From assembly GCA_965250285.1 (NCBI GenBank), contig OZ252299.1, positions 5,095,966-5,159,965 on the forward strand: a stretch of 64,000 nucleotides of DNA, written 5' to 3'. Position 1 is the first letter of the stretch; each line of letters starts with the position of its first letter. The position numbers and the translations under genes were made by a program. Below, in pieces: positions 54,869 through 59,898 of this stretch. This DNA comes from Myxococcota bacterium. GTDB taxonomy: Bacteria; Myxococcota_A; UBA9160; UBA4427. Below the pieces are notes generated by a model. The model saw nothing but the letters and a program-made list of their open reading frames with translations, did no database searches and was not told the origin of the DNA.

Positions 54869-56095
54869 TTGCCCCCTCGCGGTCGACCCAAGCGTGGCGC
54901 GCCGCCGCGCCGCGCCTCTGATCAGCCGCCGACGACATGCACGCTCAAGATCGATCGATTCGCCGCCGGCGGCGACGCGGTCGCGGTCCGGGACGATGGC
55001 AAGACCGTGTTCGTTGCCGACGCCGTCCCCGGCGACGTGGTCCGCGTCACCGTCGTCGAGGAGCGAAAGCGCTTCGCGAAGGCCCGCGTCGAGGCGGTCA
55101 TCGAACCGAGCCCCGACCGCGTCGAGCCCGCGTGCCGACACTTCGGTCGCTGCGGCGGATGCACGTGGCAACACGTGCGCTACCCGAAACAGGTCGATGC
55201 GAAGGCCCGCATCCTGCGCGATGCGCTCGAGCGCATCGGCGGCTTTCGCCTCGATGCCGACCCGCCGATGACCGCGTCGCCGGAGCCGCTGCACTACCGC
55301 GGTCGCGCGCGGGTTCGGGTCGATCGCGAACGGGTCGGTTTTCTCGAACGATCGTCGCATCGGCTCTGCGCGGTCGAGATGTGCCCGGTGCTGGCGCCCG
55401 AGCTCGAACAGGCCGTGCTCGGTCTCGGCCGGGCCGACGTCGCCGACGGGGAGTGGTCGCTCACGGTCGGCGTGAACGGCGAGGTCTCTTCGCTATCCGA
55501 GGCGACGCGCGAAGATGAGGCAAAGCGACCGGCGCCGGTCGAGCTCGAGGTGCAGGGTCGCCGCGTCGCGCTCGACGCCCGCGCGTTCAGTCAGGCCAAT
55601 CGCTTGTTGCATGCGACGCTCGTCGAGCGCGTGCTCGATGTCGCGTTGGGAGACGCGGGCGACACCAGCGGGTGGCGCGTGCTCGAAGTGCATGCGGGCG
55701 TGGGCTTCTTCACGGGTGCGCTCGCGGATCGAGTCGGTCGCGTCGTCGCGGTCGAAGCCGATCCGCACGCCGCGTCGTGGCTCGCGCAGAACGTCGCCAC
55801 CCGGGTCGACGTCATCGCCAGCTCGTTCGAAGCGGCGGCGTCGCGACTCGGCGATCACGCGTTCGATGCGGTCGTCCTCGATCCGCCGCGTGCCGGGCTC
55901 GCGCCGGCCGAACTCGCGACGCTGCGCGATCTCGGCGCGCCGCGCATCGCGTATCTGTCGTGTGATCCAGCGACGCTTGCGCGCGATGCGCGTGGCCTCG
56001 CCGACGCCGGCTACCGGCTCGAGCAGGCCGAGGGCTTCGACCTGTTTCCGCAGACCCATCACGTGGAAGGGCTCGTGCGGCTCGCGCGCGCATGA
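54869..56095 (+). CDS. TRAM-domain Fe-S RNA (uracil-5-)-methyltransferase, RlmD/TrmA family
   Basis: TRAM-like N-terminus (GDAVAV...PGDVVRVTVVE), Cys cluster CRHFGRCGGCTWQH, a SAM fold, and a C-terminal YLSCDPATLARD. Confidence 0.85.
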   Translation: MPPRGRPKRGAPPRRASDQPPTTCTLKIDRFAAGGDAVAVRDDGKTVFVADAVPGDVVRVTVVEERKRFAKARVEAVIEPSPDRVEPACRHFGRCGGCTWQHVRYPKQVDAKARILRDALERIGGFRLDADPPMTASPEPLHYRGRARVRVDRERVGFLERSSHRLCAVEMCPVLAPELEQAVLGLGRADVADGEWSLTVGVNGEVSSLSEATREDEAKRPAPVELEVQGRRVALDARAFSQANRLLHATLVERVLDVALGDAGDTSGWRVLEVHAGVGFFTGALADRVGRVVAVEADPHAASWLAQNVATRVDVIASSFEAAASRLGDHAFDAVVLDPPRAGLAPAELATLRDLGAPRIAYLSCDPATLARDARGLADAGYRLEQAEGFDLFPQTHHVEGLVRLARA

Positions 56096-56123: not shown

Positions 56124-56765
56124 TCAGGGCTCGATCAAGCCGTGGCGCAGCGCATAGCGGACCAGCTCGGTGGCCTTCCGCACGCCGAGCTTGCGCATCA
56201 GGCTGGTGCGATGGGCCTCGACGGTCTTCGTGCTGATCTCGAGCTCGACCGCGATCTCCTTTGCTGACAGACCATCAGCAATGAGATGAAGCACCTCTCG
56301 CTCGCGCCCCGAGAGCAGGCTGAACGGCTCGGCGTCGGCCTTCTGCGGGGTGCGCAGCTGCTCGACGATCTCTTTCGCGACGACGGGGCTGAAGTAGCTG
56401 CCACCGTTCATCACCTCTCGAACGGCCGTTACGATTTCATCGGCCCGTCCGTTCTTCAGGACGTAGCCATCGGCCCCGAGTGAGATCGCGCTCTGAATGA
56501 ACGGGGGGTCGCTGTGCACCGACAGCAAGATCGCCTTGACCGTCGGGTACTTGGAGCGAAGCCGCTCGAGGGTCTCGAGACCACCGAGCTTCGGCATGGT
56601 GATATCCAGGACGACGGTGTCGGGCTGGTGCTTCTCGACCTGCTCGAGCACCTCGCGTCCATCACTCGCCTCGCCGACGACCTGCAGGTCGGGCTCCGAC
56701 TCGAGGAGGCGCCGAAGGCCTTCCCGAACGATGCCGTGATCGTCTGCAACGAGGACTGTCACCAT
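56124..56765 (-). CDS. NarL/FixJ-type response regulator (REC + LuxR HTH)
   Basis: Contains VLVADDH, VVLDITMP (phospho-Asp) and LSGREREVLHLIADGLSAKEIAVELEISTKTVEAHR. Confidence 0.95.
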   Translation of the reverse strand: MVTVLVADDHGIVREGLRRLLESEPDLQVVGEASDGREVLEQVEKHQPDTVVLDITMPKLGGLETLERLRSKYPTVKAILLSVHSDPPFIQSAISLGADGYVLKNGRADEIVTAVREVMNGGSYFSPVVAKEIVEQLRTPQKADAEPFSLLSGREREVLHLIADGLSAKEIAVELEISTKTVEAHRTSLMRKLGVRKATELVRYALRHGLIEP

Positions 56766-57244
56766 GACTTCAGGAGGCTACCGCTCGCCCGAACTCGGGG
56801 CAATCGAGTAGGGATGCCTGGGGAAAGCCCGCCCCCTGATCTGGGGGCTCCACGTGACCGCGTGCGCACGTTCGACCCGACGCAGCCTGATGAATTCGCT
56901 CGGTCGGCGCGAGCACGCCGTCGCCCGCGGGCAACGCAGTGCGACATCGGCCGGGCCGGGGCGCCGCCCTCCCCGACGGATGACACCGGGCGTGTCGCCC
57001 GGTACGCTCGGCGATGGATCCGGGGCTTCGCCCCATCGCCCTTCGACCGTCGCCACGGAAGCGATCGTGCAGCGAACCCCGCCGTGCAGCTCCCAGGCCG
57101 AAAGCGCTCGAGCCGCCGTGACGCACCGCGCGTGCGACGCGATTCGCGCTGGATCCCACCGTGCCACCCCCCCGCGCTCACTCCGTTCGCGTCGCCCCGC
57201 GCCTCCGGGCGCGTGGTCCCTTCAACGTTCCAGGGGAGAACCCG

Positions 57245-57952
57245 ATGTCGGCTGAAATCGCGACCCGTTCGTCTCGCAGCGCACGCAGATCGAGGCGAAG
57301 CGCCCGAGGGTCGTCGACCGCGCGCACCGAGAAGGAGCGCCCAGCAGGCCGGTTCGTCCTCTACGTCGAAGGGCCCCGCGACCGCGATCTCCTGCGGATC
57401 TGGGCGCGGCGCGTCTCGCACGGGCTCGCCAAGTCGCTCGAGAGCTGCGTGGTGATCATGGGGGGGCGCCAGCCCGCCCGCGCCGCCGAGCATTTCGCCC
57501 GGGTGCATGGCGATCGCGAGGACGCCACCGGCCTGATCGTGCTCGACCGCGACCATCATGACCCCGACGGCGATGACGCACTGCTCGAGCCGCTCGAGCT
57601 CTTCACCTGGCCACGCCGCCACATCGAGAGCTACGTGCTCGTGCCGGCCGCGATCCGCCGGGCGGCGGGGTGCGCGCCGGCCGACGTCCGCGTCGACCGG
57701 GTGCTGGCCGAACACCTGTCGGGCGGCGCGGACCGGGACGCCTACGTCGACGTCGATGCGAAGCGGCTGCTGGCGGCGAAGGGCCCGATCGCGCGCGCGC
57801 TCGGGCAGCCCGTCTCGACGGCCGACATCGCCCGCTGCATGCGAATCGACGAGTTGCACGGCGACGTGATGGACGTGCTCGACCGCGTCGCGTCGGCGCT
57901 CGGGCAGCGCGGCTCCGAGCCCGAGATCGTCGTGCGTTCGCGCACCCCGTAG
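57245..57952 (+). CDS. Hypothetical protein with a DUF4435/Toprim-like (OLD/AriB-like) motif pattern and an Arg/Ser-rich N-terminal tail
   Basis: 235 aa. Contains FVLYVEGPRDRDLL, LIVLDRDHH and TWPRRHIESYVL, which match the E...DxD...E-x-Y arrangement I associate with DUF4435. Family assignment is by eye only. The gene itself is well supported by GC3 bias and a GGGGAG upstream of ATG 57245. Confidence 0.5.
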   Translation: MSAEIATRSSRSARRSRRSARGSSTARTEKERPAGRFVLYVEGPRDRDLLRIWARRVSHGLAKSLESCVVIMGGRQPARAAEHFARVHGDREDATGLIVLDRDHHDPDGDDALLEPLELFTWPRRHIESYVLVPAAIRRAAGCAPADVRVDRVLAEHLSGGADRDAYVDVDAKRLLAAKGPIARALGQPVSTADIARCMRIDELHGDVMDVLDRVASALGQRGSEPEIVVRSRTP

Positions 57953-58000
57953 TCGGGGCGGATCGCGCGTCTCGCTCGCTCGCGACACTCGGTCTCGGGT

Positions 58001-58978
58001 CTAGGGGTCGATCGCGTCGTGCACCAGGGGGCGCGGCATCTCTTCGCCGCGCTGCCGAGCTTCGCGCATCGCCCGCACCAGCTGGAATGCCCGCGGCATG
58101 AAGATCACGCCGATCAGCACATGCATCGCCATGAAGATCACGTTGGTCCACAGCGCATAGGCGTACAGCGCCGCCGGGTCGCCGTACTCGCTGAACAGAT
58201 TCGCCCACGCGATCTCGCGCGTGCCGAAGTTCGCGAACGACGGAATCATCAAGGCGACATACAGCACGGGGATGCGGGCGATCAGCGCGACCCAGTCGAT
58301 GTCGATCCCGAACACGCGTGAGGCGATGCCCTGCACGGCCACGTCGAAGATGCCGAAGAGCACGAAGTAGCCGATGTAGGGCCACCAGTCGCGCAGCTTC
58401 ACTCGGCCCACCAACGCCTCGAGGCCGATCGGCGCGAGCAGGCGCTGCAGCGCGCCGCGCTTCGATGCCCACAGAGCCAGGCCAAGTGCACCCCACGAAA
58501 CGATGACGATGAACGTGACGTCGGGGTTGCCGGCCACGCCACCCGGCAAGAGGGGCAACGCGATCGTCGCCTGCACGACCAACACCACGAAGTGCGCGAT
58601 GAACGGGATGAACACGACGGCCACGACCAGCGCCAGCGGTCGTCCCGTCAGCTGCCAGGTGCCAAAGAAGAACGCGGCATCCGAGAGCGAGTTGTTGATC
58701 GAACGAATCAGCTCGGATGCGCCCTTCACCGCCATGATCTGACCGACGGGCGCCTGGGCGAGGTACTGCCGGATCACGCGCGCCTGCAGCAGACCCCAGA
58801 CGAGAAAGAACACGAGCTTGTCGGCGACCACGATCGCGATGAAGAGCGGAAGGTTCGCCTGCTCGGTGGCCTCGGGGATCTTCTCCCACTCGATCGCGAC
58901 ACCGAACACGTAGTAGAGGGCGGCCCCCGAGATGACCCACGGCAGGAGGGTCTGTATGAGCTTCTTCATCGGGGGCAT
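58001..58978 (-). CDS. Flippase-like (UPF0104, lysyl-PG-synthase TM-region family) membrane protein
   Basis: About 8 TM helices. It opens MKKLIQTLLPWVISGAALYYVF, typical of the family. The start is at 58978 (MPPMKK) or 58969 (MKK). Confidence 0.75.
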   Translation of the reverse strand: MPPMKKLIQTLLPWVISGAALYYVFGVAIEWEKIPEATEQANLPLFIAIVVADKLVFFLVWGLLQARVIRQYLAQAPVGQIMAVKGASELIRSINNSLSDAAFFFGTWQLTGRPLALVVAVVFIPFIAHFVVLVVQATIALPLLPGGVAGNPDVTFIVIVSWGALGLALWASKRGALQRLLAPIGLEALVGRVKLRDWWPYIGYFVLFGIFDVAVQGIASRVFGIDIDWVALIARIPVLYVALMIPSFANFGTREIAWANLFSEYGDPAALYAYALWTNVIFMAMHVLIGVIFMPRAFQLVRAMREARQRGEEMPRPLVHDAIDP

Positions 58979-59103
58979 GCGGCCGCCGAAGATAACCCCG
59001 CCGCCCACTCGGGGGAACGTGCCTCGGCCGGGTTGTCTCGGACCGCCGCCATGGCTGGGCGAAGAGCGACTGCGCCGCTCCCGGCACTGCTAGGCTGCTC
59101 GCC

Positions 59104-59898
59104 ATGCGGGTGCTGGCGCTCGACTTCGATGGCGTGATCTCGGACAGCGCGGCCGAGGCGTTCCTCGTCAGTCTGAACACGATTCAGGCCCTCGAACCCG
59201 TCGAGGTCTGGCGCGAGCTTGCGGCGCGGGTGGGCTCGATGTCGCGTGTCGAGATTCTGGCCGACCCCATCTATCGGCGGTTTCTCGAGGGCATGCCGCT
59301 GGGCAACCGGGCCGAGGATTTCGGCGTCGTGCTGCGCACGATCGACGCGGGCGAGCTGCTCGAGGATCAGGCCGCCTACGACCGGGCCTGGCAGGCGGCC
59401 GGCGCCGAGTTCCGCGACGCCTTCCACGCGCGCTTCTACACCGAGCGCGCCGCTCTGCGTGCGCGGTCGCCCGAGCGCTGGCTGTCGCTGATGGGGCCGT
59501 ACCACCCATTCCTCGACGTGCTTCACGATCGGGCCGGCGACGTGACGCTCGCGATCGCCACGGCCAAGGACCGCACCTCGGTCGACCTCCTGCTCGCCGA
59601 GTACGGCGTCGCGGGGCTCTTCGAGCCCGAGCTGATCCTCGACAAGGAGGCCGGGCCCGACAAACGCGCCCACGTCGGAGCGCTCGCCGAGCGGTTGGGT
59701 CTCCCATTCGAAGCCATCACCTTCGTCGATGACAAGGTGAATCACCTCGACACGGTGAGCCGGCTCGGCGCGCGCTGCGCGCTGGCCGGCTGGGGCTACA
59801 ACGGCGAGCGCGAGCGGGCGCTGGCCGAGTCGCGCGGCTACGACGTGCTCGATCTCGAGCGGGTCGCGTCGCAGCTCTTCGAAGCGCGCTCGGCCTGA
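59104..59898 (+). CDS. HAD-superfamily hydrolase
   Basis: Motif I LALDFDGVISD, motif II IATAKD, motif III/IV ...DKRAHV...FVDDKVNHL. Confidence 0.8.
   Translation: MRVLALDFDGVISDSAAEAFLVSLNTIQALEPVEVWRELAARVGSMSRVEILADPIYRRFLEGMPLGNRAEDFGVVLRTIDAGELLEDQAAYDRAWQAAGAEFRDAFHARFYTERAALRARSPERWLSLMGPYHPFLDVLHDRAGDVTLAIATAKDRTSVDLLLAEYGVAGLFEPELILDKEAGPDKRAHVGALAERLGLPFEAITFVDDKVNHLDTVSRLGARCALAGWGYNGERERALAESRGYDVLDLERVASQLFEARSA

Follow-up and report, generated by a model that had tools for sequence, protein, structure and literature searches.

A stand-alone OLD/AriB-like Toprim protein in a conserved gene block of uncultured Myxococcota

The gene and its product

The stretch of DNA analysed here (the window) comprised 64,000 nucleotides of contig OZ252299.1 from the Myxococcota assembly GCA_965250285.1 (positions 5,095,966 to 5,159,965, forward strand), and coordinates are given from its first letter. 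The gene under study (the target) was a coding sequence (CDS) on the plus strand at 57245..57952, stop codon included, for a stand-alone OLD/AriB-like Toprim protein of 235 residues. The call was based on the open reading frame (ORF), the translation, the homologues, the ratio of non-synonymous to synonymous substitution rates (dN/dS) and the G+C content by codon position. Translation from the ATG opened MSAEIATRSSRSARRSRRSARGSS, and the Toprim-like motifs were FVLYVEGPRDRD (residues 37–48), LIVLDRDHH (residues 97–105) and RHIESYVL (residues 125–132). A Shine-Dalgarno-like GGGGAG was read from the sequence 6 nt 5' of the ATG (57233..57238, plus strand) and was kept in three related contigs (L008, L006 and L093); the string TCCAGGGGAG..ATGTCGGC was conserved in three relatives and backed the same start. 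A longer ORF of 263 residues, opening with GTG at 57161, was considered and found unneeded, and the 235-residue form was taken as the product because the GGGGAG site and the ATG were conserved in the three contigs.

Codon-position G+C values of 0.76/0.53/0.90 marked the coding frame, and pairwise dN/dS against two relatives was 0.15–0.27 for the entire CDS and 0.11–0.22 for the core alone. The target is a real gene under purifying selection. An earlier reading of the window made from the letters alone (the sequence-only reading) had described a 235-residue product with Toprim-like motifs and an Arg/Ser-rich tail, and the ORF, the translation, dN/dS and the per-residue confidence (pLDDT) of the structural model agreed with that description. 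Two long antisense ORFs on the minus strand, at 56759..57988 (409 residues) and 57603..59180 (525 residues), overlapped the target and its neighbours and had no gene support; overlapping antisense ORFs of this kind are typical of DNA with 69% G+C.

Residues 1–36 (57245..57352, plus strand) form an Arg/Ser-rich, disordered N-terminal tail with an isoelectric point (pI) of 12, as delimited by pLDDT, dN and variation within the family. In the AlphaFold2 model of the target pLDDT was below 50 across much of residues 1–29, and dN of the tail was 0.19–0.39 against 0.08–0.15 for the core, a rate of evolution two to four times higher. Across the family the tail ranged from 3 to about 43 residues and varied in charge. 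The core of the target itself is near-neutral (pI 6.1) and its charge is supplied by the tail; among family members tail charge and core charge were anticorrelated (rho −0.48, phylogeny not corrected for), and the net charge of the whole protein was positive in 90% of them (median +6). The nuclease domains of the ATPase-fused relatives described below were acidic (median pI 5.7). In a nuclease without an ATPase scaffold, selection appears to have favoured affinity for nucleic acids, as seen in the positive net charge of the family.

Fold and predicted active site

An AlphaFold2 model built on the family alignment had a pLDDT of 82 and a predicted template-modelling (TM) score, pTM, of 0.77, with most of the core above a pLDDT of 90. 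The modelled strands (residues 37–41, 69–71, 95–100 and 117–121) alternated with helices, and the C-terminal half was helical. A Toprim alpha/beta core was assigned to residues 37–123 (57353..57613, plus strand) from invariant columns of the family alignment A1, the predicted strands and Foldseek; it contains E42 (57368..57370), D46 (57380..57382), a GGRxPxRA motif (residues 73–80) and D101/D103 (57545..57553). The C-terminal helical domain, residues 124–220 (57614..57904, plus strand), was assigned from invariant columns and the helices of the model, and contains R124-R125-H126-I127-E128-S129-Y130 (E128 at 57626..57628), K173 (57761..57763) and H205.

When the model was compared with the Protein Data Bank (PDB) using Foldseek, the top four matches were the C-terminal Toprim and helical regions of class 2 OLD proteins from Xanthomonas campestris and Burkholderia pseudomallei, with probability 1.0, E-values of 1.6e-3 to 4.4e-3 and TM scores of 0.45–0.54 over about 215 columns. 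Over the full length of the core no structure matched better than these class 2 regions (PDB 6NK8 and 6NJV/W/X); GajA and Thermus OLD were the next matches. Against viral structures (BFVD) Foldseek returned nothing significant, with an RloB-like protein at E 0.35. The structural comparison that the sequence-only reading had proposed came out in favour of its assignment: the predicted fold has a Toprim core, and OLD C-terminal regions match it best.

The Toprim fold, as defined by Aravind, Leipe and Koonin in 1998, reportedly consists of a four-stranded parallel alpha/beta core with a conserved Glu where strand 1 ends and a DxD that follows strand 3. In the model of the target E42 follows strand 37–41 and D101-R-D103 follows strand 95–100, and Toprim nucleases were returned by the fold search. 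Invariant positions in A1 were F37, Y40-V-E-G-P44, D46, W53, G73-G-R75, P77, R79-A80, H83 and L100-D-R-D103, and further on W122, R124-R-H-I-E-S-Y130, A172-K173 and H205; E42, D46, D101, D103, H126, E128 and K173 were invariant in the 37 homologues of this alignment.

In BpOLD, metal A is held by E400, D455 and D457 and metal B by E404, T506 and E508, with K562 as the catalytic lysine (PMC6755086), and the acidic residues of AriB are E26, D30, D88, E90 and E122 (PMC11464382). Target residues E42, D46, D101, D103, H126, E128 and K173 parallel BpOLD residues E400, E404, D455, D457, T506, E508 and K562 in order and with similar spacing, and the acidic pattern of the target (E-x3-D ... DxD ... E) is that of both AriB and BpOLD. 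Because these counterparts are similar in order and spacing and are all invariant, it is reasonably probable that the full two-metal catalytic set has been kept, which supports an active nuclease.

Homology

The target was searched against Pfam, NCBIfam, PADLOC and the PDB sequences, and profiles were built for the family (A1), for a broader set (A3) and for distant relatives (A4). Homologues numbered 1143 at E ≤ 1e-3, all of them unannotated. Pfam DUF4435 (PF14491, gathering score 27 bits) gave no match to the target at E ≤ 10 and none to 37 close homologues at E ≤ 1. OLD-like_TOPRIM (PF20469, gathering score 23.2 bits) did not match the target; it matched 2 of 37 family members at E 0.24, and distant relatives reached 12–14 bits on it, below 23.2. 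The NCBIfam scan of the target protein gave no significant family, no RNase M5 family model of Pfam or NCBIfam matched it, and searches of the PDB sequences (phmmer, and profiles A1 and A3) gave nothing relevant. Direct family assignments amounted to noise (DUF7119 at E 0.029; DrmC at E 0.003 over 30 residues) and were rejected.

The family profile was then run against 1.84 billion representatives. A1 recovered the stand-alone family, followed by proteins of 540–620 residues that were matched over their last 200 residues at E 1e-30 to 1e-15. These relatives bear N-terminal AAA_15/AAA_21 ABC-ATPase domains and match the PADLOC models NsnB, AriA, AriAB and Old, and the alignment to AriAB (merged PARIS) reaches into the nuclease part. 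Comparison of A1 with the distant relatives (A4) by hhalign gave 99.9% probability at E 1e-35, and the motifs LYVEG-x-[ST]D, GGR, HF, LD-x-D, W-x-R-[YRH]-[EH]-I-E-[NS]-Y-L-L, a lysine and E-I-H were common to all relatives. The A1 profile reached protein P0224 at E 3.9e-19, and the nuclease domain of P0224 scored 29.7 bits on DUF4435 (gathering score 27); co-linear DUF4435 matches were present in 10 of 28 relatives, all sub-threshold apart from P0224. By these profile comparisons the target is linked to DUF4435 transitively and is not itself a Pfam DUF4435 protein by the threshold of the model. The DUF4435/Toprim assignment of the sequence-only reading was upheld at the superfamily level by Foldseek, the profile chain and the motifs, and failed at the level of the Pfam family, where the target falls below the DUF4435 threshold. 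An OLD/AriB-type fold and homology are considered highly probable.

In a rough neighbour-joining (NJ) tree, midpoint-rooted and without support values, the stand-alone clade was monophyletic, stood beside the fused proteins P0188 and P0190 and was nested among fusions; the RRHIESY motif was common to the stand-alone clade, P0188 and P0190. This nesting is consistent with an origin of the stand-alone form by loss of the ATPase, which is its most likely origin. Many of the short distant matches were fragments of fused genes, and the examples checked as possible stand-alone distant relatives with a separate ATPase gene gave a split fusion (L089) and an uninformative locus (L090). At L089 (3716..6672) the ATPase–Toprim fusion is split by an ISL3-family transposase and lies directly downstream of Prok-E2 and JAB/ThiF (E1) genes. 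A further relative, P0244 (806 residues), carries a Multiubiquitin domain at its N-terminus. It seems that the fused relatives belong to ubiquitin-like conflict systems.

Genomic context and distribution

The most constant neighbour of the target was rlmD (54869..56095, plus strand; TIGR00479, 235 bits against a cut-off of 183.55), which encodes the 23S rRNA U1939 m5U methyltransferase. A gene for a NarL/MctR-type response regulator, identified by NCBIfam matches, lies divergently at 56124..56765 (minus strand), and a gene for a membrane protein of 335 residues, a homologue of which has a weak LPG_synthase_TM match, lies convergently at 58001..59008 (minus strand). The NCBIfam matches and the ORF list confirmed the divergent regulator and convergent membrane protein named in the sequence-only reading; the membrane-protein gene adjoins the target in some members of the family only. 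The 64-kb window as a whole contained no tRNA gene and nothing that reached the gathering score of an Rfam family.

Family members were present in at least 157 GTDB species genomes, and 80 loci from 80 different assemblies were kept. All of the species genomes were metagenome-assembled genomes (MAGs) labelled Myxococcota or Deltaproteobacteria, with a few Spirochaetes. Assemblies titled 'uncultured Spirochaetaceae/Spirochaetales bacterium' (L009, L014, L021, L025, L042, L050, L058, L081, L084 and L085) carry the same gene block. Their neighbour identities with Myxococcota MAGs reached 97%, and the Spirochaete labels of these assemblies are probably wrong.

Searches with the window neighbours (tblastn) defined a conserved block of corC/gldE-like, rlmD, (response regulator), target, (membrane protein), HAD hydrolase, NfuA-like and transpeptidase (penicillin-binding protein) genes. 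In about 72 of the 80 loci rlmD lies upstream of the target on the same strand. The regulator gene stands between the two in about 50 of 80 (67–97% identity) and is absent from 27 of the 80 genomes, where the target follows rlmD, within 16–244 nt in 26 of the 27; at L043 fewer than about 70 nt separate the rlmD stop from the target start. Judged from this arrangement, the target is probably co-transcribed with rlmD in part of the clade. Among the block genes usually within the fetched range the response regulator was the best conserved, and the loci inspected had no histidine-kinase gene next to it. The rate of divergence of the target is close to that of rlmD, the HAD hydrolase and NfuA (39–55% identity).

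The family was absent from the viral, plasmid and phage collections searched (IMG/VR, PLSDB and INPHARED). A hidden Markov model (HMM) for the AriA/OLD-type ATPase domain had no match in the 64-kb window, and within 6 kb of the gene in L001–L088 it gave only weak matches of 14–22 bits, one of which (L004/L005) overlaps a called ABC-transporter gene. The orphan status claimed in the sequence-only reading held over this range. Because of its position in a syntenic block across the clade and its absence from the mobile-element collections, the target is quite likely, with good confidence, a vertically inherited core gene rather than a gene of a defence island. A defence effector in an island does not fit a conserved and syntenic gene of the clade, and conservation within the clade was what the sequence-only reading had named in advance as a refutation.

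Upstream spacer

The divergent spacer between the regulator gene and the target (56766..57244, 479 nt, no strand assigned) was judged non-coding from its lack of codon periodicity (codon-position G+C 0.74/0.71/0.74) and of a conserved ORF. Small ORFs within it were considered and rejected: conservation was similar across several frames and decayed fast in a more distant relative, and periodicity was missing. The absence of a credible ORF from this interval, asserted in the sequence-only reading, was borne out by the lack of both codon periodicity and frame-specific conservation.

A perfect 8-bp hairpin, ACCGGGCG-TGT-CGCCCGGT, does exist at 56985..57003 (no strand assigned), one base away from the position first reported, and as a special signal it did not survive comparison. 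Hairpins of this kind numbered 24 in the window against 21–35 in Markov simulations, a 479-nt stretch would hold one or more with a probability of about 0.15, and the arms were not conserved in the two closest relatives. It lies inside the spacer of a promoter-like ATGACA-N17-TACGCT (56980..57008, plus strand), seen in alignments A2 and A5 and below the threshold of the consensus scan. The ATGACA and TACGCT hexamers were kept in L008 and L006 and the 17-nt spacer with the hairpin was not, which would make this element a candidate promoter. The consensus scan of the whole spacer gave neither a promoter nor a terminator.

A 22-nt block, ACGGAAGCGATCGTGCAGCGAA (57055..57076, plus strand), was invariant in four related loci and stands out, since the adjacent CDS of the same genomes differs by about 0.65 at synonymous sites. 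A direct repeat, GTGCAGC-N10-GTGCAGC, has its first copy in the block and extends to about 57105, and the GG-N10-GC spacing of the block recalls a sigma-54 −24/−12 element. Given this local conservation the block is probably a regulatory site, and it could be a promoter or a binding site of the divergent NarL-type regulator. Beyond the genus-level group only chance matches were found, and a metagenome scan with a 20-mer from the block returned nine contigs, two of them related (one new).

An sRNA or riboswitch in the spacer was considered and rejected. The Rfam scan gave no match at E ≤ 1, the putative leader folded no better than shuffled sequences (z +1.67), and neither promoter nor terminator came from the consensus scan. 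The sRNA or antitoxin-like transcript for which the earlier reading had proposed a search found no backing in Rfam, folding, codon periodicity or conservation. Across the family, 102 to 668 nt separated the regulator gene from the first conserved residue. Because this length varies and the regulator gene is absent from 27 of 80 genomes, the long spacer is best read as a local, lineage-specific feature of a divergent promoter region and not as a property of the family.

Relation to known systems

The described OLD classes (1–4) pair a Toprim nuclease with an ABC ATPase (PMC11464382). This ATPase (AAA_15/AAA_21) is either N-terminal in the same polypeptide or the product of an adjoining gene; the 235-residue target has no ATPase domain, and no ATPase gene adjoins it. 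The C-terminal region of class 2 OLD resembles the target in size (about 200 residues) and in layout, with a helical domain after a four-stranded Toprim core. Unlike class 2 OLD proteins, its polypeptide lacks the N-terminal ABC ATPase and it has no UvrD-like helicase or GajB-type neighbour; sequence identity is 15–16%, OLD-like_TOPRIM is not matched, and the context is the core genome as against mobile or defence DNA.

With AriB, which is the tRNA nuclease of PARIS (OLD class 4) and a Toprim protein of the DUF4435 type, the target shares the acidic pattern E-x3-D ... D-x-[DE] ... E, and its nearest outside relatives are ATPase–nuclease fusions like merged PARIS AriAB. Unlike AriB, its core has about 200 residues as against about 300, the DUF4435 model failed on it, and AriB was not among its top structural matches. 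PARIS is a module of ariA and ariB, as two genes or merged, that is usually carried by a phage, satellite or defence hotspot and in which AriA sequesters AriB. Unlike PARIS, it has no ariA adjacent or within 64 kb and lies in a housekeeping block, not in a phage, satellite or plasmid.

The active sites of OLD and AriB superpose on that of RNase M5 (PMC6755086, PMC12409363). Like RNase M5 and other small stand-alone Toprim nucleases, the target is stand-alone and chromosomally fixed, with a predicted two-metal site; unlike RNase M5, it has an OLD-type helical domain with a counterpart of the catalytic lysine, and it matches no RNase M5 family model. A search of full-text literature returned no mention of DUF4435 outside work on PARIS, BREX or defence, and no report on the target family. 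A clade-wide stand-alone nuclease of this type in a housekeeping block is new; the fold and the chemistry are not.

Discussion

The target is best explained, at a rough probability of 0.6, as an ATPase-less two-metal Toprim nuclease that has become a domesticated core gene and acts on cellular nucleic acid. It would be an OLD/AriB (DUF4435-like) nuclease reduced to a Toprim and helical core of about 200 residues with a fast-evolving basic tail. In the terms of BpOLD, metal A would be held by E42, D101 and D103 and metal B by D46, H126 and E128, with K173 as the catalytic lysine. After loss of the ATPase the stand-alone form would have become fixed downstream of rlmD in a lineage of uncultured Myxococcota, where it occupies a single locus in each assembly. 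Freed of the ATPase gate, the protein would be an endonuclease that requires Mg2+ and cuts a particular nucleic acid of the cell.

The substrate favoured here is RNA, with a role in the processing or turnover of tRNA or rRNA, and this choice is a guess offered tentatively. AriB is a tRNA nuclease with an active site resembling that of RNase M5 (PMC12409363). RNA is favoured because AriB cuts tRNA and has this resemblance, because the target gene is tightly linked to rlmD, and because its net positive charge appears to be selected. A bolder form, less probable again, is that the lineage domesticated an abortive-infection nuclease of the OLD/PARIS type, shed its ATPase gate and brought it into RNA metabolism, for example into site-specific tRNA or rRNA processing coupled to RlmD and possibly under the NarL-type regulator.

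Several observations weigh against this explanation as a whole. The target has no significant direct match to DUF4435, OLD-like_TOPRIM, the PADLOC models AriB and Old, or PDB sequences; the Foldseek E-values are modest (about 1e-3), and AriB is missing from the 50 best structural matches. The residue equivalences were drawn from the order and spacing of the motifs, the NJ tree behind the proposed origin is midpoint-rooted and carries no support values, and the correlation of tail and core charge lacks a correction for phylogeny. The ATPase search covered 64 kb here and 6 kb to either side elsewhere, and an ATPase may be encoded in trans. The block spans unrelated housekeeping genes, and adjacency to rlmD may reflect shared ancestry and not function.

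The alternative that survives best, though unlikely, is a cellular DNA nickase or endonuclease, active in repair, recombination or the control of plasmid or foreign DNA in the manner of an isolated class 2 OLD C-terminal region. The best structural matches of the target are DNA-cleaving OLD C-terminal regions, and the isolated C-terminal region of BpOLD nicks and degrades DNA when deprived of its ATPase (PMC6755086), being an active DNA nuclease by itself; K173, moreover, would be the counterpart of the lysine on which processive cleavage of DNA depends. However, repair and recombination genes are missing from the conserved neighbourhood, and the closest sequence-family signal is to DUF4435/AriAB, whose characterised member cuts tRNA.

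Somewhat less probable still is that the protein remains an anti-phage effector of the PARIS/OLD type, held inactive until infection by an ATPase or sensor partner encoded elsewhere. The relatives so far characterised in this nuclease branch all serve in defence and are gated by an ABC ATPase, the settings of the fused relatives are those of conflict systems (E1/E2/JAB genes, a fused Multiubiquitin domain, an IS insertion), and a free AriB-type nuclease is expected to be toxic. Defence genes, however, are patchy and lie in islands, whereas the target keeps its position in a housekeeping block across the genomes examined and has diverged at a rate similar to that of rlmD, the HAD hydrolase and NfuA. 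The lack of an ATPase in the 64 kb here and within 6 kb in the relative loci scanned, and the absence of the family from the viral, plasmid and phage collections, likewise argue against a gene of that kind.

A toxin checked by an antitoxin-like RNA or small protein from the 479-nt spacer is very improbable. The long spacer, its one perfect 8-bp hairpin and the 22-nt block invariant among close relatives could be read in this way, but the hairpin is at chance level and unconserved, no Rfam family, fold better than shuffles or coding signal was detected, and the conserved block is confined to a genus-level group. In many relatives, moreover, the spacer is short, and in 26 of the 27 genomes lacking the regulator the target stands close behind rlmD. 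Hardly credible, finally, is a misassigned family with another fold or function and Toprim-like motifs by chance: the lack of a direct significant match to a curated family or a PDB sequence speaks for it, but the fold search was selective for OLD C-terminal regions, profile homology to the ATPase-fused nuclease domains extends by the transitive link to DUF4435/AriAB, and the catalytic positions are all invariant. Among the alternatives left side by side by the sequence-only reading, synteny favours a domesticated remnant or stand-alone enzyme, and fold and profile homology tell against misassignment.

A domesticated, ATPase-free nuclease acting on cellular nucleic acid would bear on how this branch of Toprim proteins is understood. 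At least about 1000 sequences of the family are left unannotated by Pfam, NCBIfam and PADLOC, and defence-system finders should not count them as PARIS or OLD. With its core of about 200 residues the target would offer a simple model for the choice between DNA and RNA substrates in a poorly understood branch. OLD and PARIS nucleases have been understood, in all four classes, as ATPase-gated weapons triggered by phage, and the target family departs from this pattern. If the explanation is true, the family would show that the nuclease module can work alone in normal cell physiology; in the bolder form, with the nuclease brought into RNA metabolism, it would be the first case of an OLD-family nuclease in a housekeeping role without an ATPase and would illustrate how a toxic defence effector is tamed in nature.

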